A stretch of 63,286 nucleotides of DNA, filler included, from Bonamia ostreae (GCA_040357525.1; 53 parts of 53 records of this genome joined end to end with filler, not necessarily neighbours in it); one strand, 5' to 3'; shown: positions 6,138 to 59,299, counted from the whole stretch's first letter. Made by a program: numbers and translations. Notes: generated from the letters alone by a model not told the origin.

Positions 6138-7111
6138 TTAATATAGCAACAGATACATCTTCTTTGAAAACCTTTCTTCTATTGTCAAATTTTTATTTTC
6201 GTAAGCTCCAATTTTTTGAACACATTTTTGAATAACATAAACCCCCAACAAATCCGTTGAATCTTCTGATTCCAGTCTCTTTTCTGTTATCAGCAATCTT
6301 CCTAAAAGATATTCGATATCGCACGTCAAATTTGGATATTTCGTGTTGTTTCTGAAAAGCTGTATGAAGCATGACGACGGTATTTCTATAAAATTATTAT
6401 AATCAATTTTGTATTCTGGAGTGAAGTCACAGCAAATGAAAAAAATTATCATTCCTAGTCCCCACGAATCGAATGAATAGTCAATCGCAGTATTGTAATA
6501 TGTCAGTTCCGGAGGTTTTGAAAAAAAAGAAGTAGTAATGTTTTCATCGTTGATTCCAGGTCTTCTGCTCATTCCGAAGTCACAGATTTTTATTATGCCA
6601 TTTTTTGTCAAAAGAACATTTTCTATTTTTAAATCGTAGTGAACAACTTCTAATTTATAATGGAGGTAGTTCAATGCAAGAGATATCACTCCAATTATCA
6701 CTTCTATTTTTAAAATATTTAGACGATAACAGAAATTTAAATTTTCTTGTAAAACCAATGACTTCTTCTGTTAGATCAAAATTCATTTTTAGGTAACTAA
6801 ATTGTTTATAAAAAACTACAAATCTAGTTCGCATCTTTCCATGGCGATAAGGATAAATTTATCTAAAACGAAGACGTGATGCATTTTCACAATATAAGGG
6901 AATCCATCAACTCTCGCGTTCCACAATATATCAATTTCAGTCTTTGAACACAACAAATCTATTTCAGTCTTTAGAATTAATTTGAATGCGTAATGTTGAC
7001 TTTGTTGGTCAGTCGCTTTGTTTTATTTTTAAATAACCTTCGATGATTACTCCGTTTCCGCCTTTCTGGATGATTTTTACAAAATGAAATTCCTTCAAAT
7101 TTTTCTTGTTG
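6138..7111 (-). CDS. Divergent Ser/Thr protein kinase, spliced (protist)
   Basis: Gly loop IQKGGNGVI, YAFK, HYDLKIENVLL, DFG, KPPE and DSWGLG are restored by removing introns 7016-7037 (22 nt), 6797-6816 (20 nt) and 6704-6755 (52 nt). Confidence 0.9.
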
Positions 7112-9220
7112 NNNNNNNNNNNNNNNNNNNNNNNNNNNNNNNNNNNNNNNNNNNNTTAATTAATTAANNNNNNNNNNNNNNNNNNNNNNNNNNNNNNNNN
7201 NNNNNNNNNNNTTATAGGAATTATAAGATTGGTCAATGATATTCATCTTCAGGTAAAACTTTTGCTAACTCTCTCGAAAGTAACTAGACGTGTCCACTCT
7301 ACAAAATTATACATCCGCTCCTGGAATGTATCTCACCTGATATATTTAAAGTACAGAAAAATAAGTAATATAGCAAAAATAATCTTTAATTCGCGATAAA
7401 CAAAATTTTTCATAGAAGTAGTTTACTGTGGGATTTTTTTTTTTGGGGGGGGGGTCGCTATTGTCAATTTGATGTAACCTTGGCGGATGACATTTTAAGG
7501 TTCATTGCTGTCTGAAATGCTTCATACAAATTGTTAGCCACGTTAAATATTGCCTACGTATTACTTCTTTTCTCTGATAAAGATATAGGGTTCACGGCGG
7601 TTATGACCAATCGACAGGGATGATCACTGCAACTACAGCTCTACTTTTGCAGTATTCTTCACTGTTACTGCAGAAAAGGGATAGATAATTCATATTTTCG
7701 AATGAGTTGATAATTGAAATTCCTCTCAATCATTAACAACTTTTTTTTCGTTTTATGGGACTGGTTTTGATTTTAAGAAGCAGTAAATTTAATGTGTTTT
7801 TGTTAGACCATCGCCAATCATTTATGGAGATGTTGTATGATTATATACAAAATACAACTGATTTCCACGATGTGTAAGCATTTTAACAGCACTAGAACCC
7901 CTCTTTATAAATAATCAGATACAGGATGCAAAATGGTATTTGTTTACAAATAAGCATATATCATTCAAAAGTACGACAATAATAGTATCATTTTCATTGT
8001 ATCATGGTTAATACAAACGGTTACTAAATAGTTGACGATTTGCAATCATCTTTTGGGAATCAGTAGACATTTGGAAACAAGTAAATGCCAAATTCCCTCT
8101 AAGAACAGTGATCGATCACATAACTCAAAGAGATAAACTATTCCATATTCCACTTCCATTCTTCACTTTACTTATTTACAATCACGTAACTCTATTAATA
8201 TTCTTAGCTAAACAACAAAGTATTCCACTTCTAACCACTTTCTCGAAAACATATACAAAAACAGACAATAATCATATTGAGTTCATTGATTACGACAAAA
8301 TATGTGTATTTANNNNNNNNNNNNNNNNNNNNNNNNNNNNNNNNNNNNNNNNNNNNTTAATTAATTAANNNNNNNNNNNNNNNNNNNNNNNNNNNNNNNN
8401 NNNNNNNNNNNNTAGCTCATTAGCGAGGCAGTATAATTTTCCCATTTATTGTCCGCTACATTATTGTGGGTCATCTACTCTACGACTTTTCCAAGTATAA
8501 GGGAAATTCATTTTCAAGTATTTTTTCTATCACTGTCCTGTTTACCGTCACGAAAGATGTAGGTCACTTGAAAGGAATACATGATCCCACTAAGAAATTA
8601 TTACGCAAATTACTGTCAGTTTATCTCTATGCGACAGGGAATCATAGATAAAAACAATCCTGTTGTACAAATACAACGTCTATCTTTGGTAATGAGGTCG
8701 CTTGAACGACGATAAGTCCTTATACCTGTACATTGCACGTACGCACTAAATTGAATTATGTATAGGACATAAACTTCAAGAGAAAGTGAGTTAATTCTTG
8801 TTCATGCTTCCTGGTGAGGGCAACAAGGTGAGTTACTGTATACGTTAAAGCTTGCTCACATCTACACGTAATTTAATTTGTCGAAATGAACACCAAATAC
8901 CTTCACATGTGTTGAACTTATAATAACAGTGTCTTTACATGTAGGGTTTTAAGAATATTTCAGACTTATATAATGTTTACGTGAAAATATAATAAAATTA
9001 GTTTTATTGTAAATATCTTGATCACAACGCTATCGTGGAAAGAGATAATTAAAAGTTTGGGTGATTGTAGACGTTTTGTAAGTTATGTTGCATTTCAAAA
9101 TCCATGTCATGCTTTTTTTTTTCGGGAAGAACTTTATTTATCGTTTTGTGATACACATATATGGTTGGCTGTTGAACCCCTTTGTAACATCAACTTATAT
9201 ACCTAACGATGTATATCAAT

Positions 9221-9513
9221 GAAATTAAGACTTAAGGAAAATACCACGATTTGTACATGGAGACAATCGTGCATTTTCTGGCAAACATGTTTGAAGGTTT
9301 TCAAGGTTTCTGCCTTGAAATGTATGCTATGACTCCACGTGACACCGGAATTAGTTAGGCAGGTTGCTATTTTAAAAAATGACGGTGTAGAGCTCGAGTT
9401 GGTAACCGATCCAGATATGCATCGTTTTGTGGAAAGGGAGCTCATAGGAGTATTCCTATGATTTCACAAAATATGTCAAAGCCAACAATCCTTATCTGAA
9501 GAACCAAGGTATT
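9221..9513 (+). pseudogene. Decayed protein-primed DNA polymerase B of a Polinton/Maverick-type element
   Basis: Across stops and frameshifts: IKT*GKYHDLYMETIVHFLANMFEGFQGFCLEMY, GVELELVTDPDMHRFVE and KYVKANNPYL, matching pPolB motifs GEYHDLYLKTDV, LELLTDxDMHLFIE and YAKANNPY. Confidence 0.8.
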
Positions 9514-9613
9514 NNNNNNNNNNNNNNNNNNNNNNNNNNNNNNNNNNNNNNNNNNNNTTAATTAATTAANNNNNNNNNNNNNNNNNNNNNNNNNNNNNNN
9601 NNNNNNNNNNNNN

Positions 9614-10714
9614 TTAAACGTCTTTCCTAATGAATATTGTTTTGTAAATTGACGTACATCCCTATTAAATCCTTTCGTTAACCTCATCTTAATAAATGGA
9701 GAATCTAATAGATATTTAAAATCTTTAGCTGCACTTTTGGGATCAGTAGTAAGTAACGCAATCTCTTTAATATATTTATAAGTATTTACATTAGCTGCAT
9801 AAGCAGGGAATGAGGTTAACTGTGTCACAATAAGCTTTGGATTTATTCCTAATGAAGCACCTACAGCATTAGTCCAAAGCCTATCAATAAGTTTATCAGA
9901 TAGCATTCTTTCTATGTTAGTTCCATCACTAGCTATATCATTAAGATGTTTTGTTAATAGACTATATAAGTTTGTTCCTTTTTGCTGTTTAATAGCTCCA
10001 GCTACTTTTGGATTAGAAAGGATACTATTTATATCCTGTATTGTCTTACCGAAAGAGGCAAAGAATAACATTTGATCTTTATAATCAGATACCTTTTTAG
10101 TGGTACCTTCTTTCAATCCTATCTCACTATTATGTATTCTTTTAGCAATAGCATTTCTTCCAAGAACATTAGAATTAGAATTATAATCATCTGAATTTAA
10201 AGCGTCTTGTTTATTCCCAATAATAACATCTGGAGAATATCCCTCACTATAAGGCATATCAGTGTAGTACATCTGTTGATATGTAGGATTAATTTCTCCA
10301 TAAGCCCAGGAATAAAATTTAGATATATCTTCAGCATATTCTAATAGACTAGGGTTATCACTAACGATCTCATTGATATGATTCATAAGTTTATTTACTG
10401 ATGCTTCTGTGTATTTATTGTTTTTCATCATCCTGTTCTCGAAATCAGGATTTAAACTCATAACATATAAATCACATATTTGGTCTAATGACATCTCTTC
10501 TAAATCAGTATCCTTTTCTGTCTTACCCTCTATAGTCTTTTCAAGTATTATTCCATTATCTTTAGTCTCTTCATGAAATTTATCACCATACTCATCTATT
10601 ACTTTTTCATGTGCTCTATCAATTTTCCCATTAGCTGTAACCATCAATTTCTCATAGTTCCGTCTTGCAATCCTAATGGGTTTTACTAAAGCATCTTTCA
10701 TTACTTGCAAAGCT
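9614..10714 (-). CDS. Internal fragment of a large phage-like protein (possible virion-internal or polyvalent protein)
   Basis: Intron-free frame open across the whole contig, with prokaryote-like composition. SLGINPKLIVTQLTSFPAY resembles segments of giant phage virion proteins; function not established. Confidence 0.5.
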
Positions 10715-10890: not shown

Positions 10891-11915
10891 GTTTTGTTGT
10901 CGGCTACACAAACCAAAAAAACAAAAGATTTGGCAAAATTATCGTTCAAGAAAACGCAGTTTTACGTTGGCGTTGACGACAAAGAAACGCATTCAACGAG
11001 ATTGGGTCTCGAACAGGTTTTTAGTCCAAACTGAAATTTGTACCAAACTTAATTTTTTTGCTTTTTCAAATTTTTTTCATTGCCAAATATCAAATATTTC
11101 TGTTTCGACTTTTTTGTCAAATTCTTTAAAATGTTTTCTGTTTGTCTTTTCTTGTAAACAATTTGGTCAATTAAGGGATTTGTGATAGTGGAACCAGAGA
11201 AGAAGTTTCTGTTGCTTTATTCTTTTCTTCGGCGTAACAGAAGAAAGAAAACAATTGTTTTTCTGTCAACTTGCAGTTCGACGCGTTTTTTTGCAGAATT
11301 GCTAAACTACATTGATATTCCCGTTCTCGAACTTCATGTTTGACAACATTTTTGAAAACATTTTGTCACAAAATTTCAAAGACATTTTTGAAAACATTTT
11401 GTCCAAAATTCCGAAAACATTTTTAAACAACTAAAATTTCGCTTTTTCAAAAAGGGCAAATTGAAGCAAAGCAAAAGAACCAGCACGTTTTTTGAATTTT
11501 GCAACGCCAAAAATGGCTGTTTGTTGGCGACTGATGTGGCCGCGAGAGGATTGGATGTTCCAGAAGTAGATTGGATCATCCAATATGATCCTCCAGACGA
11601 CCCAAAAGTTTTCTTTCAAAATATTAAATTTTAGTCTTATATTCATCGAGTCGGAAGAACAGCGAGAGGTCTTAACGGTCGAGGAAAAGTTTTTAACAAT
11701 TGATTTCTTTTACAAAAACGAAAAAAAATTTGAAAAAAACTAAATTTGGAGACTAAATTAATAAAACGGTTTAAAATTTAGGCGTTGATATTTTTGCAAC
11801 CGACGGAAACAAAATTTCTTCAAATGTTGTCGGAAAATAAAGTGCCGATGAAAGAATTCAATTTCCCTAAAAACAAAATTTCAGATGTTCAATCGCAACT
11901 CGAATCTTTAATTGA
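10891..11915 (+). CDS. HAS1: DEAD-box RNA helicase HAS1/DDX18, partial and spliced (protist)
   Basis: [64 protein letters not shown] and ISDVQSQLE. Introns 11017-11175, 11338-11454, 11608-11634 and 11689-11781. Confidence 0.95.
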
Positions 11916-15615: not shown

Positions 15616-16271
15616 TTTTCATCTCTTTGCTCGAATAGAATAGCTACATTAGGCAAATAAATAGTATATCTTAAGCCTTTTTTTGCATATTCATTATTGT
15701 TTAATTCTTTCGTCTGATACTTAATAGGTGTTGAACATACAAGATATTGTAAGATGTTGTTATCATACAAGTAATCTAAAGCATTCGCACTATTGACCTC
15801 GAAAGGATATGGAGAAGCTCTTTCAATATCAGCATTGAAATCCTTGAACTCTGTTACAATAAACGTGTTTGGGTCAGTATGCTGCAATTCGATGAATCTT
15901 GTGTCCATATAATCGTCTAACGATTTATCTCCCCAGAATCGCCCCAAAATATCCTCTATTTCAGATAAATTCTTCTCATCGTTATCCTTGTATTTCAATA
16001 TTCGTGACTTTGAAGAAGATCGAGGAACCTTGTAAGCAACATCCATTAGATTGCTACACACCGATGTTATGATGTGTTCAGTAATATTAACTCTTTGTTC
16101 AAATTCTTCGTCAGTCTCTCTACGAACGAATTTTTTAAGCATGTCGTTCATACCATCACCAGTAATTAGCGTTCTGTATAGCTTAGCTAAATCGACTGTG
16201 TGATTATAATTAGCGTGTCTTGCACCATTAATTACTCTTATAAGCAACTTTATAGCCTGTTCTCTGTCCAT
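15616..16271 (-). CDS. Probable phage portal protein, N-terminal part
   Basis: Starts 43 nt after the terminase stop on the same strand; KFVRRETDEEFEQRV is typical of portal N-termini; no introns. Confidence 0.7.
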
Positions 16272-16313
16272 ATGTTTATATTTTAATTTAATGCAAATAT
16301 AATGTTTAATTTA

Positions 16314-16715
16314 CTAACCATTTGATCTTATATATCTAGTGTATAAATTCTTTAATACCTTAATTATCAGATAGTCCGAAGCGTCAGACGTGTGTCCTCG
16401 CTCCTGGTAACTTTCACCTGTTGATGGATCTTTTACAACCTTTTTCTCCTTTTTCCCGTTGATATCTTCTTTAATATATTCGTAATCACCTATCAAGTTT
16501 TTACACTGGGGGTCGATCTCAATGGACCATCCATCTATTTTACCCTCAAATAGTTTATTTATAAAGTTCTTACGTGAGATTATCCCTGGATTACTCCTTT
16601 CTACCCTATTTGATCCATTTGATAGGTAAGGTCGCAATACTCTACGAATGATGTCATAGTACTTCTCCTTTGATTCCGTTGTCCTGGCTTTTGCAGTAGC
16701 ATCACCATAGTAAAA
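16314..16715 (-). CDS. terL: Phage terminase large subunit, C-terminal nuclease domain
   Basis: The frame is open to the contig edge: FYYGDATAKAR...SNPGIISRKNFINKLF...IDPQCKNLIGDY...GHTSDASDY, the RNase H-like TerL motifs. Confidence 0.85.
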   Translation of the reverse strand, partial: FYYGDATAKARTTESKEKYYDIIRRVLRPYLSNGSNRVERSNPGIISRKNFINKLFEGKIDGWSIEIDPQCKNLIGDYEYIKEDINGKKEKKVVKDPSTGESYQERGHTSDASDYLIIKVLKNLYTRYIRSNG

Positions 16716-19281: not shown

Positions 19282-20312
19282 GGAAGGCTTTTTCGAGCTT
19301 AAGGAAGAAAAAACTGAATTTCCAGTGTCTCCGTTTGAAACTACTTTCGACTCGAACCCGATTGTAGTGTGCCCCGTTTGTCTGGAGGATTTACAGAACG
19401 AGTCCAAATGTGTTCTCACTCTGTTGTGCGGCCATAAGATGCACGTGGGCTGTCTCAGTTCTTCGTCTGTCTGTTGTCCGATCTGCCGCTTTGAAATAAG
19501 TTCTGCGAAGCATTTCTCGAAATGCGATTTTTGCGGCGCTCAGGGACAGCTTTGGTTTTGTCTCGTTTGCGGAAGCACCAACTGCGAAAGGTTCTGACTA
19601 AAACTTAAAATTTGCAGAGACGGGCATTCTCTGCGGCATTTCGAAGAAACGGGGCACGTGTACTCTCAAGATCTCGACACCAAAGAGGTTTGGGACTATG
19701 GCGAAAAGCAATTCGCGTCCCGACTTATCTTCTCAGATTGCGGGAACAAGATCGTTCATTACTCGAGAACGCGAAAGCAATCCGATCAGAGAGCACTCGA
19801 AGAAAAGTTCGACGACAAAGTTTTGAGAAACGCGGTCAAGTTCGACAAGCTAATTGCGGAACACTCTCTTTTGCAGCGAGAACATTACGACAAATTGACC
19901 AACAAAATGCGTTCCGAAGAAGAGCTGAAAAGAAAATCGATAAAAGAAAAACTTGAGAAGCTCGAATCGAAAAAATCGGATTTGCAGGAAGAAAATAAAG
20001 CTTTTAGAGGAAAAATATCAGAAATGGAAAAATCGATCAAATCAATCGAGACGAAAGAAAAAGCTGTTGACAAAAAATTAAAAACACTGGAAAAGGTCAA
20101 CACAGCTTTACTGATAAAACAAGGCAACGTCCGAAAAGAATTTGATGCTTTGGAAAACAAGAAGAAACTTTTTTACAATGATGCTCTGGAGAGGAAGAAA
20201 AACAGAATAAAAGAGCTTAAAGACGAAATTGAAGATCTGAAAAAACATCTGGACATCGAAGAAAAGCTCAAAAAAAGAGACGCTTTGGATGGAGGAAACA
20301 TGATTAGAGTGA
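19282..20312 (+). CDS. BRAP: BRAP2/ETP1-like E3 ligase (RING-H2, ZnF-UBP, coiled coil), partial (protist)
   Basis: CPVCLEDL...TLLCGHKMHVGCL...CPICRF, LWFCLVCG and GHSLRHFEETGHVYSQDLDTKEVWDY. A 27-nt intron at 19591-19617 joins the two ORFs. Confidence 0.9.
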
Positions 20313-20412: not shown

Positions 20413-21399
20413 TTCGAAGAATCGTTTTATCGGAGACTGCGAAAACGTATCCGAACTCAAAGACGGCAAAAAATGCCATTTTTGATCGCAGTCAAAGTTT
20501 TCCGGCGAATGCTCGGAACAATAAACAAATCCGTTTTTAGACGATTTCTGCCCGATCAACGGCGTGACGCAATATTGGTCTAAAGCGGTTTCCAAATGTC
20601 TTTTCGGCAATTTTGTCTCAAACTCGAACCCACAATAAACGCTATTTTTGAGTGCGCAGAGCGCGTGAAAGACTTTTCCACAATCTTTCTGCGAACAAGA
20701 TATCAGTTTTCCGTCCATTCCTGCGCACTGGAAACATTTTCCCGCTCCGTTTTCGATTTTTTTCTTATTGTTCTTTTCTGACTCGTTTCGCGGAAGAATC
20801 TCTGCCATGAAAAACAGATTGCCGATTTTGACAGATCCGTCCAAAAGAGCGCAAGCAACATGGATCCAATCGCCGTTTTGCGATATTTTGAGTGCGCCAC
20901 CTTTGAAGGAACAGCGCCCACATTGCGCAGAACTTTTTTCGCCCGCGACGCAAACATCGCAGAACCAGTCGTTGGCCTCGTCCGACACTCCATAGCACCG
21001 TTGATGGACCGCGATCTCGCAAAACGGGTTGGAGCAGAACACGAAAAAATCTCTGTCGAAATGAACCGGAGAATAACAGACGGAACAACGAGTTTCCGAG
21101 TTGAGCTTATTTCCGGAATTCGTCAGTTGGTCGAAGACAAAGTTGTTTGCGGTCAAATCGAAGATGTCCAAATTGGACGGGAAAGAATCGCCTTTGAGAA
21201 TCGGACGCGGCATCGATTCGGCGATGACTTTTCTGTCCGAATGCAAAGCGCATCGCAGAATCGGCTCGGCGAACTCGATTTTGGCACTATTGCTCAGATT
21301 GTTTCTGAACGAAATCCAATGGAATTGTTTTGATTCGAGTGCGCAGGACAAATGGAAGAAGCGCGCACATTCGGTTTCGTTGTAATTGCATTTAAGCAA
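20413..21399 (-). CDS. PHD/ePHD (PZP) chromatin-reader protein, BRPF/JADE/AF10-like, partial
   Basis: CSVC...FVFCSNPFCEIAVHQRCYGV...WFCDVC...CGRCSFKGGALK...WIHVACAL...CFQC...ISCSQKDCGKVFHALCA...YCSEHS, preceded by the tail of another ePHD. Confidence 0.88.
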
Positions 21400-21611
21400 A
21401 TTTTTGTGTTTTGAGTTGTTTTCGCAAAGATGGCATTTCTTTGTAACGAAAGGATTTTTTAATTGCTTAATTTTGACAAAATTTTATCAATTTAAAAAAT
21501 AATCGGATTACNNNNNNNNNNNNNNNNNNNNNNNNNNNNNNNNNNNNNNNNNNNNTTAATTAATTAANNNNNNNNNNNNNNNNNNNNNNNNNNNNNNNNN
21601 NNNNNNNNNNN

Positions 21612-21990
21612 GTCCTTTTTGGCGCCATTTTTATTTACCGTTTTTGACTATTTTTGGTTATTTTTAACGCCATTTTTATTTATCGTTTTTGACTATTTTG
21701 GTCATTTTTATTTACCGTTTTTATTTATTGTTTTTGACTATTTTTTGTCCTTTTTGGCGCCATTTTTATTTACCGTTTTTGACTATTTTTGGTTATTTTT
21801 AGCGCCATTTTTATTTATCGTTTTTGACCATTTTTGGTCATTTTTAGAACCATTTTTATTTATCGTTTTTGACTATTTTTGGTTATTTTTAGCACCATTT
21901 TTATTTATCGTTTTTGACTATTTTTGGTCATTTTTACCGCCATTTTTATTTATTGTTTTTGCCATTTTTAAACGTTATTTTTTTTAATGT
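21612..21990. repeat. 45-bp minisatellite, about 8 copies, in the intron upstream of an AMPK gamma exon
   Basis: Unit GCCATTTTTATTTAYCGTTTTTGACTATTTTTGGTYATTTTTARC; it explains the spurious 15-aa repeat ORF. Confidence 0.95.
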
Positions 21991-22050
21991 TTTGACTGTA
22001 TTTTAACTCATTTTTTAACTCAATTTTTTGTCATTGATTGTTAAATTTAG

Positions 22051-22636
22051 AAACATTAAATCCGAAAAAGAAGAAAATAAAATCGATAAAAATCGAAGAC
22101 AGCCTTTTAAAAGGAATTAGAATTTTGCAATTTGAAAAAATTCATAGACTTCCTATTGTTCAAAAAGATTGTGACAGAGTGCTGTGTATTTTGAATTATC
22201 AACGCATTTTTAGATTTGCGATTAGAAGAGTTTTTATTTGCAAATCAAATTTAATTTTCAAATGACAAAAATTTTATAACAAAAAAAATTGACAAAAAAC
22301 AAAAATTTTATTAAAAAAGTGCTTATTGGACGAAACATTTTCGCCTTTAATGCGCGAAATAAATCTTGGCGATCTAGTAATAAGCGGTTTGGGAAACTTC
22401 ACCAATTATTCAACCGCAAACATAAACGATCCCATTCTTCAAGTTTTGTCCAAAATTCGCGACAAAAAATTGTATTGTCTTCCTTTAATCAATAACGAAG
22501 GAATTTACATCGACAGTTTTACAAGTAGCGACGTTCGAGTTTTTTTTAATTAGAATTAAAGTTTTTAGCTTTAGACGGGAACCACAGAAAATTGAATATT
22601 AGTACGAAGGCTGCGTTGGGAAATCATCACAACAGA
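22051..22636 (+). CDS. SNF4: CBS-domain AMPK/SNF1 gamma subunit, partial and spliced (protist)
   Basis: DSLLKGIRILQFEKIHRLPIV...LCILNYQRIF, GLGNF...LPLINNEG...FTSSDV and KLNISTKAAL align with the AMPK gamma CBS repeats. Introns 22230-22319 and 22539-22561. Confidence 0.8.
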
Positions 22637-22830: not shown

Positions 22831-23801
22831 TTAAAAACCGTTTTCATTTAACAACGAAACAAAAATTTTTCCGTTTTCCAAAACTTCCACAAAAAACCGA
22901 TTTTGTCCCGTTTTGAAACGAAACCCATTTTCATCCAAATTTAACGGCACTGCTCCCAACGCCGACGACAGAATCTGATAAACTTTTCCAAATCGCAATT
23001 CGTTTTCAGCTCTCATTTTCTCTTTCTCTTTTTTCTCTTCGAACTCGTTCACTTTTTTCTGTTTTTCTTTCAATTTGGCCATTCTTTCGTCGTTTTCTTC
23101 GATTTTGCGTTTCAGATCGCGAAAATGTCGTTCTTCGAGCGATTGCAGCGATTTGTCGATGGACAGTCGATTTGAATAAAGAAACGCGTTTTTGTTGTTG
23201 AGAGAAAGAAGGATTTCCTCCAGTTCCGAACATTGTTTGGAGAGAACGAAAGTGCAAATCGAAGAAATTTTGTTTTTGCGATTTATTTTTTCCGATTCCG
23301 TTTTTTGTTCTTCGATTTTCGCCGTTTTTCGGATCAATATCTAATTTTTAAAATTTTGATTTTTGGAATTAAATCGAAAATAAAAACTTCCGCGACGGAA
23401 ACATCTTCGATTTTTTCGACGAACTGTTTAAAATTATTTTCGTTTTTGCCAAAATCGTTTATTTCGTTTTCCAATTTTTCGACAGATTTTTCGGTTTCGT
23501 AAATTTCGGTCTCCAATTTTTGAAGTTCGGTCGACAATTTTAGAGAAAGCGGTTTTTGCAGAATAAAAAATTTTAGTTTTTCGGAAAATGATTTTGGTTT
23601 TGCAAAATCTTGTTTCATCGGAAAAGCCAAATTTTGCATGTTTTTGGCTAAAAATTTTGAATAATATTCAGAATTTGTTTTTCTTTGTTGTTTTTCGATG
23701 TTTTTTTGGGGATTTTCTGTTTTTTTGTTTGGGCTTTTGAGATCTTTTTGGAGATTTTTCGTTTTATCGTTTTGTTTGTTTTGTGATTTGAATTCTGTCA
23801 A
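22831..23801 (-). CDS. Unknown coiled-coil protein, spliced (protist)
   Basis: Two K/E-rich ORFs are joined in frame by a 47-nt GTTTTT...TTAG intron at 23341-23387. Confidence 0.65.
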
Positions 23802-26039: not shown

Positions 26040-26055
26040 TCCCTTTTAGTTTTAA

Positions 26056-37575: not shown

Positions 37576-37590
37576 CCGTTATCCCTCCTT

Positions 37591-37932: not shown

Positions 37933-37933
37933 G

Positions 37934-38775: not shown

Positions 38776-38909
38776 GACAGTCATTCTCTTCCTACATATT
38801 CGTTAGAATATGTCCCTATATTCAATTCTATGAAAAGGCATTAACTTTATGAACGATTACATGTAAAAACAAAAATTATAAAGATGATATATTGCATTGA
38901 AAGACTTAC

Positions 38910-42150: not shown

Positions 42151-42176
42151 AATTCGATTATTAATATTAAAAAAAG

Positions 42177-43001
42177 TCTTCTATAATCCATGTCATCCTT
42201 CAGCGCGCTACAAATCAAGCCGGATTAGTAAAAATAGGAAGAAGCTATTACGAGAAAGAAATGATGAACGAAGACGAATTTTTGCTGAAAGATTACAACA
42301 TCCGCCTGTTTCGCGGATACAGCATGAACATCGAACAGACCATGAAAGGGCTCCAGCTCACCGTCGATCTTTCCCACAGAGTTGTGTCGACCATCAACGC
42401 TTCCGATCTGATCGACTCCTTCGACAAAAACTTGAAGCCGCTCCCGCCAGGCGGAATGACCAAAGGTGCTCCCGTCAAACAACACAAAGGGGAAGTTCTG
42501 AGGGGGTACCACCGAGGAGTGCCCACCATGAACAAGGCCTTCGCGGCGAACCAGATGTTCGACGACAGAGACAAGGAGAACACCCCCGAGATCCAGCGCA
42601 GAGCAGAGGAAGAGCTCGTGGGACGCTCCGTGATCACGACGTACAGACTGCGCAATTGGCGCATCGACGCGATCGAGTGGGACAAGAACATCGACAGCAC
42701 TTTTTCGTGGAAGAAGAAAAGCGGCGAAACGGTCAAGATCTCGTTCAGAGACTACTTCTACACCAATTACCGCCTAAAACTGGTAAGCAAACGCTTCGGA
42801 ATGTTGGTGAGCATGCCGAAGTCGAGACGCGGGAAAGGGCCAGACAAGTTTTATCTCCCGCCGGAAGCTTGTTATTTGACCGGGATGTCCAAAAAGATGA
42901 AAGCGGATTTCAGGATGATGAAGAGAGTGAGAGACATCGTCTCGCTCACGCCCCCGAAGCGCTTCGAGGCCATCGAGAACATCACCAGAGATCTCAGCAA
43001 A
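42177..43001 (+). CDS. PIWI-clade Argonaute, internal exon covering the end of N, L1, PAZ and the start of L2
   Basis: LVKIGRSYY, IRLFRGY...GLQLTVDLSHRVV, LVGRSVITTY..NWRIDAIEWDKNIDSTF, ISFRDYF...Y and YLPPEACYLTGMSKKMKADFRMMK. AAG acceptor at 42176 and GTTTTT donor at 43002. Confidence 0.9.
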
Positions 43002-44971
43002 GTTTTTTGATAGAATTTTTGTCATTATTTATTGAACGAANNNNNNNNNNNNNNNNNNNNNNNNNNNNNNNNNNNNNNNNNNNNTTAATTAATTAANNNN
43101 NNNNNNNNNNNNNNNNNNNNNNNNNNNNNNNNNNNNNNNNATACTTCAAATAGTCTAGACACTATGAAAATCATTCATGTTTGACCATACAAACAGTTAA
43201 TTTAAACTGCTGATTTTTAACACGTGCAAGTTCAAATTCCTTTAGAGGAGAGCAAAATAAACACTTGACCTCGAATATTGTGGCATTGCGAGGCTTCAGT
43301 ATCGGATTTTGGGAATTCAGTAATACAAAATTATGGAATAAGAAAATGCACAATTGAGAGTGCACAGTTATACACTTTGCATGAATGGAACTTAGTGTAA
43401 AATGATGACAATGGACAGCGGAGTGCTGATGTAGTTTGTTGTTATTTATTTGTTTTTCTTTGATACACCTGTTGAGGGGAAAACAGCATGGATATAAAAT
43501 CAATCAGATCCTCAACTAATGCTTCGTTTCTGCTGTGCTGCCTTTAAAAATAAGCAGCATTTTATACATAATGACCGACTAGAGCTACACGGAGGTCACA
43601 TGAATGTGGGTTATCACCATTATAGTTTAAATGTCGTTTTTAAAAAAAATATTTTACTCCATAAATAGAATTGTAACATAGGATCAGCTTGATAATTCCT
43701 GATTCAATCCTTGAATCTGTGTATCCACTTCACTATTCACATATTTGTTTTAATTGATCCCGAGATAGATTTACTAGCATTATGTAAATCTATGTCACAA
43801 CCTTTACATCACGTTTTGCCTGTCTAGTAGTCATATCGGTATCGCTCATGCAACATGTTGTCAAGCACAAAAAGTAAATTGATATAATACCCGACTCTCC
43901 AATAATAAGGTGGAAAAACGAGTTATAGTTGAGTTAATTGTGACTTCATTCACTCCAAACTACAACGTTCACTGCCAACATTTTACACAAAGCCGTTTTC
44001 GGCTATATATCCCGTAGTGCTGAATATTCGGTGTTGATTACATGTATTTCGTAACTATTTCCGGGGAATCATTTAACTGTACATTCAGAGACACAACATT
44101 TGTGATATATGGAACATTTCAAAAAAGGTAAAATCTTGAAGCATTTTCCTATAATGGCAGTTCTGTGCTGTAATAAATGTCAAATGACAGTTTAGATAAA
44201 CTCAGACTCTATATTGAACGGTTTGTTGAATGTNNNNNNNNNNNNNNNNNNNNNNNNNNNNNNNNNNNNNNNNNNNNTTAATTAATTAANNNNNNNNNNN
44301 NNNNNNNNNNNNNNNNNNNNNNNNNNNNNNNNNTCACTTGAAGATATATATCTCAGTAGATCAGGGTTATCCGTTTCTATCACGGATGCGAGTCCTCGGG
44401 AATGCACAGGTAGTGTACCCTTGCACTTTACATGAACTTTGGTAGAAGCGGTGGAATACTCTAATTTGCACGCGATGGAGGACATTGAAAAAGAGATATC
44501 ACTCATAGAGTAAAAGCTTGAAGAACTGAGAGAGCACAGTGATGAGGGAGAGTTTCCAGGCTTCAACACCTGTGAACCCGAGTGGCAAAACTGCTCCAGA
44601 CAGAGACTCAGTTGTGACAACACGCATATCAACAGAAGTCTGCCAGTCTACGATGGTAGATAATCCGCAGAATTGCGAGGAGATGCCAAAACCAATATAA
44701 GATGACGATAATCGGAATTTAGCAGATAGCGCAAGGGTCAGATTACGCATGGAGAGCGCACAGGAATCATTGGCTGTCAATGCCTTCCACACGCCTCTTA
44801 TGATAGATTCCTATTTTACAGAAGGCGCAAGATACAAACCGACTGTTACGGCGGGTAATGAAGATTCTCTTTTACCGGAAATAACGCGGAAACGCAGATA
44901 TCACAAAGTAAGATTATCTAGTCCAGAGAGCCAAGTGAATGCGCACATGGGGAATCATTCTATCCCGAATC

Positions 44972-46718: not shown

Positions 46719-47810
46719 TGCGTTTGATAAAATTTTTTGTTGAATAAAAATTTTTTTATCAAAAAAGTGACTGCGAGTGATAAAACGAAACTAATGTACC
46801 AAACCTGTTTAAAGGCGACAAAAAATAGCAACAATAGTGAAGGATTGCTAAAACTATCCAGTTCAATCTCAGAAACACTAAAATCAGTCAACACTAAAAA
46901 TAGCGATGATCCGATTTGTGCAAAAAAATCAGTTTGCAAACATTTTTCCAAAGCTTTGGCGGATTTACATTTAAGATCCGAAAAAACTTTATTTTCTTCA
47001 AGGTTAAAAAACTTTTACAAATTGGAAAAGTTAATTGCAACTTTCAAATTTGAACGCTAAAACTTAAATTTGAAGAATATTGGATTTTGTGAGAACAGGA
47101 AAATATAAACAAGAAAAGGTATTATCGTTAATGCAACCAAAATTTGTTGGCGGTTACAGACAAAGCGAAAAAACAAAAAACTGCCATTTAGAAGAGGACG
47201 AAATTGATTTTGACGACATTGTTTATGATGATAAAGACGATCACGATAAAAAATCTTTTTCGAGATTTCACAGAATCGCAGAATTAGTTAATAAAAATTT
47301 AATGTTAAAAACAAAAAAGACACAAAAAAGAGTATCGAATAGCGACTTAAAAAAGTTGGTAAAATTTGAGAAATCGCTGGACAAATATAGAGTTGACCCG
47401 AATGATATAGGAAAAAACATGAAAATGCTCGAAGGAAATTCAAAATTCTATTCGGTCGCCAAATTGAATTCCCATTTTGGCAAAATTTTAGATTTTAATA
47501 ATTATTTGAAGCAATTGTTTGGAAAGAAATCTTCCGATTTTGATGGTAAAAATGTAATGGTCATTTGTCCGACTTATTTTTCGGCTCTAAATAAGATCTT
47601 AGCCGAAGAAAGTGGCAGAATAGTAAAATTATATGCGAAAATGAGTGCTTTTGTTAGTTTTAACAGCAAATTTCCGGCTGTTTTGAGCAAAAAGGACCAA
47701 AAGCTTTTTGGGTTGAAAAACTTATTTGATTGTGCTTATTTAACCGAAGCTGCTTTGCCTCATTCAGCAAACAAAATGTTTCTAAATGGAATTGAATTGG
47801 ATAATAAAGT
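46719..47810 (+). CDS. Peptidase M13 (neprilysin/ECE-like) N-terminal domain, partial (protist)
   Basis: KTKLMYQTCL, LVKFEKSL, YSVAKL...LDFNNYLKQLF, VMVICPTYFSALNKILAEE...VKLY and DCAYLTEAALP occur in M13 N-domain order. Intron 47003-47075. The HExxH motif lies outside the contig. Confidence 0.7.
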
Positions 47811-47932: not shown

Positions 47933-48659
47933 GCAATTTGTTGCAATGCTTCGTCGTTCTTCCTCTGATTTATTTTTCTTTCGTGAGGAAAAATCCGTAC
48001 AAGTACATAAGTCATTACTTTTCTGCTGTGATCACCGCTTTCTCTACTTCGAGCAGCGCTGCTGCTTTACCCTTAAATATTCAGTTTTTACTGTTACATC
48101 GAACACAAAATATTGTCACCTTAAATATTCAATGTCGAAATCACTTCAAAATATTGTCACCTTTAAAGGGGAGCGTACAAAAGTGGCATAGACAAAAATA
48201 TTGCAAATTTCGTGTTGTCGTTAGGAGCAACTTTGAATATGAACGGATCCAGTCTTTATTATCCGATAACAATTATCTTCATATCGTTTATGTACAAGAA
48301 ATCAATCGATTGGGGAACGCAATTTCTGATGTGCTTCATTACTGCTTTCGTGACAGTCGGAAATGCGCCTGTAATTAAGTTGTAACATTAAAGATTCCCT
48401 CTGGATCATTTGTCTATCTTTTGCTGGTTGGCAATGCCGTCGGAATACATTTGCCGGCGGAAGCTGTGTCTCTTATTTTTGCTGTCGATCCGATCATGGA
48501 TCGCATAATAACAGTTAATTTTGTGTAAAATCGATTAATTTTGACGTTTTTCTGTAAAAGGCAACAAATGTCTGTGGAGATTCGTTTGCCGTCGCAATTA
48601 TCGAAGTTTTGAACAAACGTTTAAACAAAAGAAGGAAAGTTAAAGGTAAACAAAATTAA
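47933..48659 (+). CDS. SLC1/DAACS dicarboxylate-amino acid:cation symporter, C-terminal half (protist)
   Basis: TAFSTSSSAAALP, FVLSLGATLNMNGSSLY, GNAPIPSG and AVDPIMDRIITATNVCGD. Introns 48084-48168, 48371-48393 and 48514-48560. Confidence 0.93.
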
Positions 48660-49205: not shown

Positions 49206-49955
49206 CTAAACAAGTTCCGACTGCCACTTTTTCAGTTTACTCTCCAATTCCACCGCTTTTTCTCCGTTCGAAAACATCAAAACATATTTTTTCACTTTAT
49301 TGATGCCATGCGAAATCTCCACTTTCCTTTCTCTCCGCTCAAACGACACTTCTTTTACAAATTTTAGCAAAACTTTTCCACTCGAAAAACGCCACGTTCG
49401 CCGGAAACACTTCTTTCTTAAAATTCAGTTCGTCCTTTACACACAAAAACTTGTTTGAGCCCACTACGACAAGGATTTTAATGTTGCCATCTTTCGAGAT
49501 CGGGTCCAAAGCGAAAAAATAGTCGACAAAGTTTAATCCGACATGTCTTCCGCCCTGTGATTTTCTAAGAATGTCTGTTATCTGCGCCTCGTCAGCGTTA
49601 TAACTTTTTATGCTCTTTTCTTCGCCGTAGAACATTCTCGGAAATCGTGTCGGTCGCAGTCGCTATTTTTTGAAGTTTGGAAATGTGACAATTTTTAAAA
49701 TGAAGTGTTTTTGTCGTTGTAACAATGAACCTGTTCGATGGCCGGGAGTGTGTCTGAAATGGATGTGGAGAACGTGGAAATGGCATCTGCCATTCCAGAA
49801 AGCGGTTTTGCGACAAAGCCGATCGCTCCTTTCGCTGCGCCTTTGAAAATGCCTTTCGAACCGGACTCTTTAATTTCGCTCAATGGCATTGTCACTATTC
49901 CTGTTACACCCGAAGCGACGCTTTTTCCGAATCTACTTGCGCCGCAGTACAATCC
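49206..49955 (-). CDS. VPS13: VPS13-family lipid-transfer protein, C-terminus (protist)
   Basis: SVASGVTGIVTMPL...GIFKGAAKGAIGFVAKPLSGMADAIS and RFPRMFYGEEKSIKSYNADEA. Introns 49663-49730 and 49352-49373. Confidence 0.88.
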
Positions 49956-49959
49956 CTTT

Positions 49960-50194
49960 TCGTTTTAAATCGATTTTAAATAAAATTTTGTCGTTTTAAA
50001 TTGATTAAAATTAAAAAGTTGTCGTTTTAAATCGATTTTAAATAAAAAGTTGACATTTTAAATTTATTTTAAATAAAATATTGTCGTTTTAAATTGATTT
50101 TTATTAAAATATTGTCGTTTTAAATCGATTTTAAATAAAATATTGTCATTTTAAATTAATTAAAATTAAAAAGTTGTCGTTTTAAATCGATTTT
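49960..50194. repeat. About 30-bp intronic minisatellite abutting the VPS13 splice acceptor
   Basis: Repeated TTGTCGTTTTAAATYGATTWWAAATWAAA units run to the contig edge. Confidence 0.92.
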
Positions 50195-52676: not shown

Positions 52677-53348
52677 ATATAACTAAGGAATATACTAGTT
52701 CAACGGAATGGGTTCGGAAATATTGCCAACGATTTGAAAGACAGCACTTAAAAGTAGTTGTCTTTGGCAGGTAAAACTTAATTCATCATGCTTAAATGTA
52801 TAACAGATAAACATACGGTATGGGAAGCTTGAACTGTCCCCGTAACACGACTTTCATTTTCAATTGAATGAACAATGTATGCATATTTTTCTGATGAATT
52901 TTTCAAAGATAGCAAATAACGGTTCTTTTTAGATATATTATCATAAAAGCGTGCCTTTTTGTGAAAAAATAATAATAGTGAATTATTATTTGAATTATGA
53001 TTAAGACTGTTTAATTGAGAAAGAATCGGTTGACCCGATACACATTTACCCAACCGTTGTATCAATTATTCGTAAAACATATTTGATACCTTATTACCGA
53101 GGCTTCACGTCATAATTTGTTGTTAACAAACTAATGTAACGCATATCACGCTTTCAACATTATTGAACCCTGTATTTCACAGCACATCCAGTGGAAAGAG
53201 TACTACAATTAATGCTATTCTTCACAATACCATTGCACCAACAGGAATGGGACACATAACGAACTGCGTTTTTGAAATCAAAGGATCACACGGAAAAGGA
53301 AATATTTCTTTCAGGATCAATAACGACAATAAAGATTATAACATTGAG
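52677..53348 (+). CDS. Mitofusin/Marf-like dynamin-family GTPase, two exons (host)
   Basis: RQHLKVVVFGS|TSSGKSTTINAILHNTIAPTGMGHITNCVFEIKG versus mitofusin [24 protein letters not shown]...LPSGIGHTTNC. Intron 52771-53182. Confidence 0.85.
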
Positions 53349-53867
53349 GTAAACAATTCATGCAACTTTCACATCATGAATAATCTACAAACATATATTT
53401 ATTTTATATTCACTGGCATCATTGAAAGAGGTTTTGTGAATACTTGTTCGTGTATGAAAAGATGAAAATAACTAACAGTGGTCAATCCAACATCTCCTAT
53501 AAGGAACTCGAAATTAAGTGTTTGGAAAACATATACATCTGGATTAACCGGGGGAGGTGTAAATGTAATTGGAAATAAAATCTAAAAACTTGGGGAGATG
53601 GTTCATTCATTCGACTTTTTGAGGAGCACTTCTCATGACAGTCCGTAAACTTGAAGCTAGGTCATATGTTTCTCCAGGTCAATAAATTGATCAAAGGTAA
53701 ACGGTGAACAGAGGATGATTGCCCTCCCACACCCCTGATCCTACTTGTTATTTGTACATAGGTCCATNNNNNNNNNNNNNNNNNNNNNNNNNNNNNNNNN
53801 NNNNNNNNNNNTTAATTAATTAANNNNNNNNNNNNNNNNNNNNNNNNNNNNNNNNNNNNNNNNNNNN

Positions 53868-54680
53868 CTTATTAATCCCTTTATTGAAAGATTTAAAAGA
53901 TAAAATCTTTATCCCTTCTTCTGCCCAATCGGAAGAACTCTTGATAAAAAATGGCTTAAAGGTCGGTTGCTTGAACCAACATCCATTAATCGATGTCACT
54001 TTAGACGGCGTCGACAGTATTTTTGTCGAAGAAAATGTTGTTTTTAAAGGAAAAGGTTCTTATTTGAAGCCATTCAATTTAAGTTTTAAATCGTATTCAC
54101 AAACTAAAAATTTGATTTTCGATTAATTCAAAAATCGGAGATTCGATTACATAAATTATTTTTTAATGAGCTTTTATTGGTTAAAAATTTATTTTTTTAT
54201 CGATATTATTGTTGTATGAACAATTTGGAATTTTTTTGCGGTTAAAATCTAAATCACTAAATTTTTGAATTCGAAGGCGGTTGTTTTCTAATGGAAAAAG
54301 TTTTAATCGCAAATTCTAAAAAAACCATTTTGGTTGGAACGAGCGATAAAATAATCAAAAAAAGCGATTTGTCTAAATTTTCGATATCGATCGAAATTTT
54401 GCCAAAATGTCTAAATTCTTGTCAAAATTTTATAAAATCAAATTTTGACGTGCAAAACATGAAAACGCGTCAATCGGAAAAGAATAAAATCGGTTATGTC
54501 GTTAGTGACAATGCTAATTTTATTGTCGATGTCGAATTTCAGCAAACTTTTGACAAATTTGATCAGTTTCTAAAGTTTGTTGAAAATTTGGAAATGAAGC
54601 TTAATCAAGTTCCTGGCGTTTTCGGAACTGGCATATTTCTAGATATGGTGGATATTTTTGTCACTGGAGATTGTAAATGA
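53868..54680 (+). CDS. RPIA: Ribose-5-phosphate isomerase A, 5' truncated (protist)
   Basis: IPSSAQS, IDVTLDGVDS, FKGKGGCFLMEKVL, IEILP, VVSDNANFIVD and LNQVPGVFGTGIF. Intron 54056-54276. Confidence 0.9.
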
Positions 54681-54704
54681 ATTTTTGTTTTGGTTAAATG
54701 TGTA

Positions 54705-54860
54705 AAATTTGCAAAAAAAACGGAAAAAGATTATTTTTAATAAAATTTTTATAAAATTTGCAAAAAACGGAAAAAATATTATTTTTAATAAATTTTTTTT
54801 TAAAATTTGCAAAAAAAAACGGAAAAAAGATTATTTTTGATAAAAATTGCAAAAAGCGAA
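54705..54860. repeat. About 50-bp tandem repeat, three or more copies, downstream of RPIA
   Basis: AAAATTTGCAAAAAA(n)CGGAAAAA(n)ATTATTTTT is repeated. Confidence 0.85.
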
Positions 54861-57338: not shown

Positions 57339-57438
57339 NNNNNNNNNNNNNNNNNNNNNNNNNNNNNNNNNNNNNNNNNNNNTTAATTAATTAANNNNNN
57401 NNNNNNNNNNNNNNNNNNNNNNNNNNNNNNNNNNNNNN

Positions 57439-58528
57439 ACAAAAACCTTTCATCAATGCTAGAAAACAAGATTCCATAATCTTCACAAACGCACATCGAT
57501 CGACAATATTTTCAATTATTTTAAAAGTTGTTTCATACTCTTTTTTAAGACTAGAATAGAGAATTAATTTTTTGTTATTTCTTTTGTACAAAATGTCGGT
57601 ACAATCGGAGAGGTCGTTGAAAATGGTTTTGTAACCGATAAAAAGAACAATTTTTTCAAATTTTTCTGGCATTATTGTTTGTCCAACTCTCTTTTTTTAG
57701 AAATTTATAAAATTTTCTGTTTAGCAAAAATCAATTTTAAACTTTTGACGTATTTAAATTTTCAAATTCGAGATCCAAAAGGGCAAGAAGAGAATCGATC
57801 GATTCTTTTGCAACAAAAATGGTCGAGGCGATGGCTAGTAATTTTTCTAAATTCAAATTTTTGTTTTTCTTCAAAAATTTCTCAACGTTTTTCAATTGTT
57901 TTTTCTCCTTTCTCGGGGAAAAGTTGATATAGAAATTTATGTAATCCATCTTTTTTAGTAAAAGAAACATTGAGAACAAGTGAAAAATGAAAAACATTGT
58001 CGCTCAAATCAAAGTTGAGAAACGAATTGATCAACAGTTTGTAGAGAGCCAAAGTATTTTTAGAAAAAATCTGCAAAGTGTTCTCCGAAAAAATACTTTT
58101 CTTGTAATTCGAAACGATGTCCAAAGCGTATTCTGTCAAACGATTGAACTCTTTTTGGATTCTTTTTCCTTCCAAAATAACTTTTTTCGGAGAGACATCA
58201 TTTTCGAAAATGTTTTTTTGTACGACTTCCAATTTGACGATCTTGTTCGAAATATCGTTCACCAATATTTTCTGATCTCTCGCGATGTGGTTTTTCAGAA
58301 TTAAGCCAGGTTTTAACAAAAAGGGTTCGAGTTCGCTGTAGAAACTCTTTTTCTGCTTTTTGGTTTTCCAGCTGCTCAATTTCAACAGATTGTAAATCTT
58401 TACGGAGAGAGAAAAGGTTTTTTTGGTTTCTTTGTTGGTCAGAACCAGTTTAATTTCTTCGAATCGGAATTTGTAGTATTTTAAAATTTCGATTAAAGGG
58501 CCCTTTGAATGAAATTTATTTTACAGAA
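57439..58528 (-). CDS. Unknown protein, spliced (protist)
   Basis: Three ORFs are joined in frame by GTT...AAG introns at 57950-57995 and 57691-57742. Confidence 0.65.
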
Positions 58529-58628
58529 NNNNNNNNNNNNNNNNNNNNNNNNNNNNNNNNNNNNNNNNNNNNTTAATTAATTAANNNNNNNNNNNNNNNN
58601 NNNNNNNNNNNNNNNNNNNNNNNNNNNN

Positions 58629-59299
58629 CTGTTCAATCGGCGCTGTTTTCGCGCCATTTTACTCGAAAAGCATTATTTATGTTCTTTACGGGAAAAGATG
58701 GCTGAGCTCCGGCGCAGACGTTCTTTTGATTTTTTATGTCATCTGCATCATCGTTTTTTAATAACGATAAAAAGCTAGAAGCCTTAAAAGGCATTTCAGA
58801 CGCCCTTTTGAACACTTTAACAAAGAACGAAGATGTTTTGGGCTTTTTTGTGACAGAAACGATATCCGATTTGATCGGAATTTTTACTTTCGTTGTTTTT
58901 GCGACGACTTACGAATTTGCTTACAAATCGCCGTTTCGCCAAAATCCCAAATTTGCGAAAAAAATTGGAGTGATGACATTAGTGACAGGAAAATTTATTG
59001 GGATTTGCATGCGATTGATGGCTTCAATCGCATATTCGGCTTGGTACTCGAAGCAGAAAAAGGGGGATTTTGGGAAAACAGATCAAATCGATTTGTTTAA
59101 AAAATCTCTGCCGCCTAAAGATTCAATGTTTATGTTTTTTGTCGTTTTTGTGATTTTGCTTTTGTCGCATCACAAATTCGATATTGGGAACATTGAAGAA
59201 AGATATTTGCGGCGAGTTTTTAGTCACTCCGTAGTGGGATTAGCTTGTCTTTTCTTTTGCGCCCTTAAATTCTATTCGGATTTTAATAAATTTTTATGA
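58629..59299 (+). CDS. RFT1: RFT1 (MOP/MATE-fold dolichol-oligosaccharide translocation factor), C-terminal part (protist)
   Basis: VFAPFYSKSIIYVLYGKRWLSSGADVLLIFYVICII|LEALKGISDALL...IGICMRLMAS...HSVVGLACL follows the RFT1 C-terminal pattern. 22-nt intron at 58753-58774. Confidence 0.72.

Follow-up and report, generated by a model that had tools for sequence, protein, structure and literature searches.

The 63,286-nucleotide (nt) stretch of DNA analysed here as a whole (the window), from the Bonamia ostreae assembly GCA_040357525.1, carries on about 17 of its 53 contigs a set of compact eukaryotic genes that are interrupted by GT-AG introns, roughly half of them only 19–27 nt long. These tiny introns are real, and the robust part of what sets this intron set apart is that the canonical RAGT signal at the donor and the canonical YAG signal at the acceptor are missing. 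On balance we think it probable that they are ordinary GT-AG spliceosomal introns of one eukaryote, belonging to the class of ultra-short introns with weak splice signals and showing a moderate preference for T at position +3. A first-pass annotation of this DNA had singled out GTT donors and AAG acceptors as a sign of an undescribed mechanism, to be sought in compensatory changes of U1 and U6 or in a recognition based on intron length. The idea of a new mechanism finds no support in our analyses, since both of the proposed mechanisms have published precedents, and on present evidence we are dealing with a known type, that of ultra-short introns with weak signals, in a variant that leans towards GTT.

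The excision of introns, with their termini and lengths, could be read directly from two sources. The first is the contig at 10815–11915, which carries a DEAD-box helicase gene and which we compared with sequencing runs. Five runs contain this contig, none of them recorded as RNA; that run X3 represents RNA is our guess. The X3 contig (791 nt, depth 2007) lacks four stretches of the plus strand, all of which have GT..AG ends: 159 nt at 11017–11175 (GTTTTT..TTAAG; the joint in X3 runs from 11014 to 11174, with the cut shifted by +2), 117 nt at 11338–11454 (GTTTGA..AAAAAG, containing a 36-nt tandem repeat), 27 nt at 11608–11634 (GTTTTC..TTTTAG) and 93 nt at 11689–11781 (GTTTTT..ATTTAG). The 27-nt stretch is left out in X3 at a depth of 2007.6 out of 2007.6, and at a depth of 0 in X1, X2 and X5. 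The DNA runs X1 (record of 1,118 nt), X2 (1,029 nt) and X5, which stem from three different studies, retain the stretches wherever they cover them, the three longer ones being kept in both X1 and X2. Cutting out the four stretches, with the first taken as 11017–11175, leaves a single open reading frame (ORF). We note separately that in one contig each of X1 and X2 position 10864 is linked to 11722 through 1,186 letters of other sequence, a joint that likely reflects either a repeat common to another locus or a structural variant.

The second source is a proteasome beta gene on the plus strand. An exhaustive protein search with its last exon returned the record P0002, of 240 amino acids (aa), which is 100% identical to the exon from the exact residue at which we had placed the acceptor. 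Translation by script of 27895–28685 (the stop) without 27945–27967 (23 nt, GTAAAA..AAAAAG), 28175–28197 (23 nt, GTTTTA..CACAG) and 28345–28366 (22 nt, GTAAAA..TTCAG) reproduces P0002 letter for letter; all three removals are required for this identity, and Atlas contains the record letter for letter. We count P0002 as independent but weaker support because it is possibly a computed model. The first-pass annotation had listed GTAAAA among the donors of a host genome, but this donor is not host-specific, for it starts two of the three tiny introns of the proteasome gene. It could be argued that the skipped stretches are indels between strains, or that they are artefacts of assembly affecting both the X3 contig and the protein record, given that X3 differs from the window at a few bases (8 of 9 records are 95–99% alike) and that its RNA label is guessed. 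We regard this as very improbable: all four skipped stretches run from GT to AG and open one frame when removed, DNA runs from three studies retain them where they are covered, and three more GT..AG stretches have to go before the 240-aa subunit appears.

To these seven supported introns we added 18 that are anchored on ORFs or Pfam matches, giving a set of 25. GT and AG termini are found in 7 of the 7 supported introns, whereas the other 18 are GT..AG by construction: every GT..AG pair that joins neighbouring ORFs in frame was listed and the shortest was taken, with four exceptions, of which one (54056–54276) was chosen by Pfam profile coordinates and three (6704–6755, 48084–48168 and 48514–48560) by a family motif. 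Left out of the set were one junction in the VPS13 contig, which has too many solutions, and uncertain 3′-terminal joins of two contigs, the kinase one and that at 58629. Two other routes to gene models were rejected. A mechanical ORF-joining scan gave 490 GT..AG candidates versus 496–954 for seven control dinucleotide pairs, and was not used as evidence; of two dynamic-programming gene finders, one was too permissive and the other fused neighbouring introns.

The 18 anchored introns differ in how tightly they are placed. Three are sole solutions within the lengths considered: 7016–7037 in the protein kinase gene (minus strand, 22 nt, GTTATT..CAAAG; at up to 60 nt), 22230–22319 in a gene with weak Pfam CBS-domain matches (plus, 90 nt, GTTTTT..AAAAAG; at up to 100 nt) and 49663–49730 in the VPS13 C-terminal region (minus, 68 nt, GTTCAT..AATAG; at up to 100 nt). 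For three others every solution listed begins GTT: at 1648–1668 (minus, 21 nt, GTTTTT..TTAAG), between Sec1 exons that match profile positions 79–241 and 253–358, all three frame-keeping solutions do so; at 47030–47075 in the peptidase M13 gene (plus, 46 nt, GTTAAT..TTGAAG) the four listed solutions are all GTTAA; and at 57950–57968 (minus, 19 nt, GTTTCT..AAAAAG) the solutions of 19, 28 and 46 nt on this acceptor are all GTT. The intron at 19591–19617 in the RING and zf-UBP gene (plus, 27 nt, GTTCTG..TTGCAG), with Pfam matches on both exons, is the sole short solution, next to a 60-nt alternative starting GTCTCG.

In the remaining cases a choice had to be made. The shorter of two valid solutions was taken at 6797–6816 (minus, 20 nt, GTTTTT..TTTAG; alternative 23 nt, GTAGTT), and the shortest at 22539–22561 (plus, 23 nt, GTTTTT..TAAAG; ambiguous among several solutions), at 29094–29112 in the TFIIF-beta gene, with Pfam matches on both exons (minus, 19 nt, GTGAAA..TTTTAG; alternative 52 nt, GTTTCG), at 48371–48393 (plus, 23 nt, GTAATT..TTAAAG; the shortest of three with a common acceptor) and at 58753–58774 (plus, 22 nt, GTTTTT..AAAAAG; alternatives 37 nt, GTCATC, and 55 nt, GTTCTT). 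The intron at 23341–23387 (minus, 47 nt, GTTTTT..AATTAG) has a unique acceptor and in-frame donors at 47, 56, 62 and 80 nt, of which the shortest was taken, and the frame join at 57691–57742 (minus, 52 nt, GTTTAA..AAAAAG) has a 61-nt alternative starting GTCAAA. A family motif decided two introns, at 48084–48168 in the SDF transporter gene (plus, 85 nt, GTTTTT..TTAAAG; alternative 76 nt, GTTACA) and at 48514–48560 (plus, 47 nt, GTTAAT..TAAAAG; alternative 38 nt, GTGTAA). The frame join at 6704–6755 (minus, 52 nt, GTTTTA..AATAG) was chosen by kinase spacing; a 21-nt intron proposed earlier at 6704–6724 (GTCTAA) is in frame and free of stops, but it is doubtful, as the 52-nt intron fits the spacing of the family better. 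Finally, 54056–54276 in the ribose-5-phosphate isomerase gene (plus, 221 nt, GTTCTT..TCGAAG) separates exons that match profile positions 2–53 and 50–169, with alternatives of 194 nt (GTTTTA) and 260 nt (GTATTT).

The length profile of the set is bimodal. The 13 tiny introns measure 19, 19, 20, 21, 22, 22, 22, 23, 23, 23, 23, 27 and 27 nt, with a mode of 22–23 nt, and the 12 longer ones 46, 47, 47, 52, 52, 68, 85, 90, 93, 117, 159 and 221 nt; up to four introns occur per 1.1 kb. GTT starts 21 of the 25 introns, namely 9 of the 13 tiny ones and, as claimed earlier for the longer introns, all 12 that exceed 30 nt; 15 of the 25 start GTTT. The +3 position is thus T in 21 introns, A in 3 and G in 1 (a purine in 4 of 25). 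T occupies +4 to +6 in 15–16 of 25 and +7 in 11 of 25, and GTTTGT is found at 0 of 25 donors. Acceptors are AAG in 15, TAG in 7, CAG in 3 and GAG in none, with AAG at 7 of the 13 tiny introns, and the last exon base is G in 9 of 25 (hand count). Within this set no donor matches the canonical U1 5′ end (GTRAGT), 0 of 25 donors are of the U12 type ([AG]TATCCTT), and there is neither a polypyrimidine tract nor a preference for Y at −3. The kind of pattern reported in the first-pass annotation, with many GTT donors, no G at +5 and about half AAG acceptors among the tiny introns, is therefore reproduced in our set, although AAG and part of GTT are matters of base composition, as set out below. G at +5 occurs once in the 25 introns (at 11338, GTTTGA) and in 0 of the 13 tiny ones, an absence that is to be expected at 8.5% G (P = 0.32).

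As null models we used the GT and NAG sites on the sense strand of the 17 contigs and, as a harder null, only those sites that lie outside ORFs. The sense strand has 754 GT sites, of which 46.9% continue with T and 21.4% with TT; in non-ORF DNA the shares of GTT and GTTT among 77 GT sites are 53.2% and 32.5%. T follows about half of all GT sites here, and GTT is therefore only partly a preference. AAG makes up 45.2% of 851 NAG sites on the sense strand and 44.3% of 61 in non-ORF DNA. Against the non-ORF null the 25 introns give p = 0.0013 for GTT, p = 0.004 for GTTT and p = 0.08 for AAG. AAG acceptors are thus base composition and not enriched, and the 8 of 16 that had been offered as a special signal are at composition level (p = 0.44). 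GTT is local composition plus a moderate excess, which more junctions are needed to pin down: the excess is present in our set, but the 11 of 16 GTT donors counted earlier do not by themselves depart clearly from the null (p = 0.066).

Comparison with the deep intron interior (T 0.398, A 0.390) places the excess within the donor. T at +3 stands out (p = 7e-6), +4 to +6 deviate weakly (p 0.01–0.03) and +7 and +8 are at the interior baseline, so that +3 alone is strongly off composition. T at +3 thus goes beyond intronic composition, the yardstick by which the first-pass annotation had proposed to judge its idea, but the enrichment of GTT over background GT sites is only ~1.6-fold, and the seven supported introns taken alone give p = 0.28. 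The same annotation had also suggested a recognition that needs little beyond GT and AG, and this fits the data.

At the other end of the intron the signal is one of A-richness. From −4 to −8, A and T make up most of the bases (A in 10–15 of 25), and the count of A is 15 of 25 at −3, at −7 and at −8 alike (a marginal excess over 0.390, p = 0.027 for each position). The tiny introns change from T60/A42 in their first halves to T40/A59 in their second (Fisher p = 0.011), and the longer introns repeat this T-to-A trend more weakly when their initial and final 10 nt are compared (p = 0.045). A YTNAY or TRAY word lies 7–20 nt from the 3′ end in 11 of the 13 tiny introns, such words being common in AT-rich DNA, and words resembling TTAAC, CTAAT or TTAAT occur 7–13 nt from the 3′ end of most tiny introns, both being raw counts. 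Pairing of the 5′ T-run with the 3′ A-run into a hairpin was considered and dropped: relative to mononucleotide shuffles of the intron core, z averaged −0.19 over the 13 tiny introns, and only one fell below −2 (58753–58774, z −2.63).

We propose that the organism belongs to the known ultra-short-intron class, with about half of its introns at 19–27 nt and a tail to ~220 nt. Its splice sites would carry little information beyond GT and AG, recognition would take place across the very short intron, and the A-rich region just upstream of the AG probably contains the branch point. The T at +3, like the weaker one at +4 to +6, would then be due in part to local composition and in part to a moderate, lineage-specific preference. 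The mode of recognition, the role of the A's as branch point and the origin of the 17 contigs in a single organism are what we infer from these data. The looseness of the motif, which admits GTA and GTG donors and varies at +5 to +7, fits an ordinary spliceosome working with minimal signals better than it fits donors of the Entamoeba type, discussed below.

Several points weigh against this proposal. Evidence that goes beyond ORF logic covers 7 of the 25 introns (four from the X3 contig and three from P0002); X3 is called RNA by guess and contributes one contig, and P0002 could be a computed gene model. In these seven introns alone both GTT and GTTT stand at 5 of 7, the former not significant, as given above, and the latter borderline (p = 0.04). 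If a non-GTT alternative is chosen wherever a valid one exists, GTT falls to 11 of 25 (hand count) and the enrichment is gone. That all 17 contigs share one source is itself inferred. The 12 of 12 longer introns with GTT argue for a signal linked to the donor over an effect of shortness alone, and the ultra-short-intron animals published so far have GTa rather than GTT donors, which means that this organism is none of those analysed.

Some of these points, together with the 53.2% GTT at non-ORF GT sites, the p = 0.066 of the earlier count and the fact that introns of one gene are not independent, could be taken to mean that there is no donor preference at all and that the GTT excess results from T-rich composition, a small sample and the choice of gene models by both analysts. 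We hold this to be distinctly unlikely. In the 13 introns for which the choice of model makes no difference (the seven supported, three with unique solutions and three in which every alternative is GTT), GTT is present in 11 of 13, with p = 0.02 against the hardest null and p = 0.006 against all GT sites; GTTT in the supported introns and T at +3 relative to the intron interior point the same way.

In canonical spliceosomes the 5′ end of U1 reads ACUUACCU and the U6 box reads ACAGAGA. Judged from the donor letters, the pairing of these sites with a canonical U1 5′ end would extend little beyond GU. One might therefore ask whether the donor GUUU(U) is recognised specifically by a small nuclear RNA (snRNA) that has co-evolved with it, either a U1 whose 5′ end is complementary to GUUUU or a U6 whose ACAGA pairs at +3, +4 and +6 (A-U, G-U, A-U). 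T at 21 of 25 +3 positions and at 15–16 of 25 from +4 to +6, as compared with 0.398 in the deep interior, speaks for such a recognition, as do the 12 of 12 GTT donors in introns longer than 30 nt, where the signal goes with the donor and not with intron length. Set against this are the looseness of the motif (GTA or GTG in 4 of 25, including two of the seven supported introns, and GTTTGT in none), the single G at +5, a base that U6 pairing would favour, the 11 of 25 U at +7 and an enrichment of GTT of only ~1.6-fold over GT sites that are not splice sites. We consider specific recognition of this kind unlikely. In the window itself an Rfam search, which would cover snRNAs, returned 0 families at the gathering score or at E ≤ 1 over its 63,286 nt, and no splicing-protein domain turned up among the Pfam matches in a general scan of window ORFs of at least 75 aa.

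A precedent for such a change is known from Entamoeba, where a U-rich donor at +3/+4 goes with a co-evolved U1 (ACAAAC, complementary to GUUUGU), and where, as the authors remark, the ACAGA box of U6 may be a further pairing partner for U at +3/+4 (Roy and Bowser 2022, bioRxiv 10.1101/2022.06.08.495308). Entamoeba is intron-poor and its donors are strict, with 88–90% GUUUGU, 97–99% GUUUGN and 78–83% U at +7 (bioRxiv 10.1101/2022.06.08.495308). The introns described here resemble those of Entamoeba in having U in place of purines at +3/+4, in being AT-rich, in candidate branch motifs that resemble AUUAAU and in frequent TAG acceptors. They differ in that GTTTGT is absent (0 of 25), +5 G is found in 1 of 25 and +7 U in 11 of 25, half of the introns are shorter than 30 nt and up to four occur per 1.1 kb. 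The GTT start of 12 of 12 longer introns nevertheless keeps the Entamoeba-type option alive. Among the literature found on GTT-type donors in tiny-intron organisms, Entamoeba was the only case, and others may be in print.

Likenesses also exist to animals with ultra-short introns. In myxobolid myxozoans and Dicyema japonicum the signals at both ends of introns shorter than 30 nt are reduced (Hadjez et al. 2026, PMC13644364), to GTa at the donor and AG at the acceptor. The branch point has been proposed to lie in A's ahead of this AG, U2 has kept the region that binds the branch point, and the genomes retain U2AF (PMC13644364), a picture of an ordinary spliceosome that manages with minimal signals. 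Like the myxobolids (Thelohanellus, Myxobolus, Henneguya) and Dicyema, the organism in the window has a large class of 19–27-nt GT-AG introns with reduced motifs and no polypyrimidine tract, A's upstream of the AG, an AT-rich genome and divergent proteins. In table S14, intron lengths at Q25/50/75 are 21/22/54 for Thelohanellus kitauei and 20/22/61 for Myxobolus rasmusseni, and for Dicyema japonicum they are narrow, with Q10–Q90 of 22–32 (PMC13644364). The bimodal lengths with a long tail seen here resemble the myxobolid profile and not the narrow one of Dicyema. The letter at +3 sets the organism apart from myxobolids and Dicyema alike, and from all six myxozoans described: T in 21 of 25, with A in 3 and G in 1, as opposed to GTa. 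Consistent with the latter, the first RPS13 intron of both T. kitauei and D. japonicum starts GTA in the supplementary alignment (PMC13644364). In size, the introns can also be likened to those of ciliates (Stentor, 15–16 nt; Paramecium, 20–35 nt) and of the Bigelowiella nucleomorph (18–21 nt), in which a spliceosome likewise works on introns of less than 30 nt (PMC2222250, PMC13644364, PMC9505925).

The proteins of the tiny-intron organism are divergent, its genes compact and intron-dense, and its non-coding DNA AT-rich, as judged from the contigs themselves. Among 1.84 billion protein representatives, the closest match to the proteasome subunit other than itself has 53% identity; of 39 related loci in JGI metagenomes, none of them from this organism, the best reaches 47%. 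The M13 exon had no match in PDB at E ≤ 0.001, and the Vps45 exon scored 58 bits only. Scans for exact 31-mers found none in metagenome_contigs or genome_contigs, a protein word search returned the window's own ORF only, and searches with the spliced isomerase and transporter gave no match. Some features lean towards animals, namely the PAZ region, which matches PIWI-clade proteins, and the peptidase M13 and SDF domains. Contrary to these, the proteasome subunit scores higher with 7qve (191.5 bits) than with entries named beta type-4 (~163), ahead of 6qm7 (~155), yeast-named entries (116) and 5fmg (102). We take 7qve to be a plant entry and the beta type-4 entries to be mammalian. Long open frames free of TAA, TAG and TGA are present, and nothing thus suggests a reassigned stop codon. 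We note that a PIWI-type PAZ frame (42171–43007, plus strand, 279 aa) and a PHD-finger frame (20413–21483, minus strand, 357 aa) each span nearly a whole contig with no intron, which indicates that intron density in this organism is very uneven from gene to gene.

The window as a whole is a mixture of DNA of three origins or more. One part comes from an AT-rich eukaryote dense in introns, another from an animal whose introns are ordinary, and a third consists of phage-like ORFs that have no introns. Its 53 contigs, of 1,089–1,103 nt each and ordered from longest to shortest, are connected by 52 N/TTAATTAATTAA/N linkers (e.g. 1104–1203 and 7112–7211), and one contig has an internal gap of 10 N. 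Because the contigs are unrelated, any feature that extends across a linker is meaningless, and the span 6704–58774 given for the splice signals in the first-pass annotation crosses ~45 unrelated pieces. The classes of contig were separated by a Pfam scan of 134 stop-to-stop ORFs (at least 75 aa) together with inspection of ORF maps. This yielded the ~17 contigs with compact eukaryotic genes and AT-rich non-coding DNA, whose Pfam families are Sec1, Pkinase, Helicase_C, RING with zf-UBP, PHD, CBS, Proteasome, TFIIF-beta, His_Phos_1, PAZ, Peptidase_M13_N, SDF, VPS13_C and ribose-5-phosphate isomerase. On many of them T-rich minisatellites (units of 15–135 nt, 2.6–14 copies) flank the genes, as at 21612–22015, 26050–26303, 41947–42158, 49960–50194, 54703–54845 and 2187–2291. 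These repeats give rise to long spurious ORFs (e.g. 21613–21984) and may be a signature of the organism's intergenic DNA.

The animal-like contigs carry an I-set exon, a Dynamin_N exon, a BESS motif and a 355-bp satellite. The I-set exon (contig 38362–39456, minus strand) is bounded by TTTTCAAATAG and GTAAGT (donor at 38909), and the Dynamin_N exon (contig 52677–53767) by TTTCACAG and GTAAAC (donor at 53349, plus strand), with a pyrimidine-rich acceptor ahead of each. Canonical donors of a host type are thus present in the window, as had been stated before, and they fit an animal genome mixed into the same assembly; the names protist and host given earlier can reasonably be used for the two genomes, which differ and sit together in a chimeric window. 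A 355-bp tandem repeat at 1–952 (2.7 copies, 84% matches), on a contig with no Pfam match, looks like a satellite of the animal genome. Contigs of the third kind have long ORFs with no introns, and their matches to PHROG are weak only. Three such ORFs, with neither intron nor Pfam family, lie on the minus strand at 9616–10713, 15618–16715 and 37212–37950; two of them have weak PHROG matches of unknown function (phrog_9880, 4e-6; phrog_4279, 3e-4). These ORFs probably belong to phages or bacteria whose DNA entered the same assembly. At 7435–7457 a run of ~11 T is directly followed by one of ~9 G, on a contig with no Pfam match among its ORFs of at least 75 aa, and this is possibly an assembly or library artefact.

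If GTT(T) should fail to hold, the analysis would still show that the window is a mixture of organisms and that AAG and much of the GTT excess are DNA composition. If it holds genome-wide, the organism would offer a natural test of how 5′ splice sites are chosen without U1-type complementarity in genes with many introns. Published cases with a changed donor are intron-poor (Entamoeba), and published ultra-short-intron animals use GTa. We may have met a lineage new to splicing analysis, possibly an unsampled parasitic animal or protist, that combines ultra-short introns with a genuine GUUU-type donor read by a retuned U1 5′ end or by U6 pairing in place of U1; we offer this as speculation that is unlikely to prove right. 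If true, however, it would be a second, independent case of co-evolution between 5′ splice site and snRNA outside the Archamoebae, and the first in an intron-dense genome.

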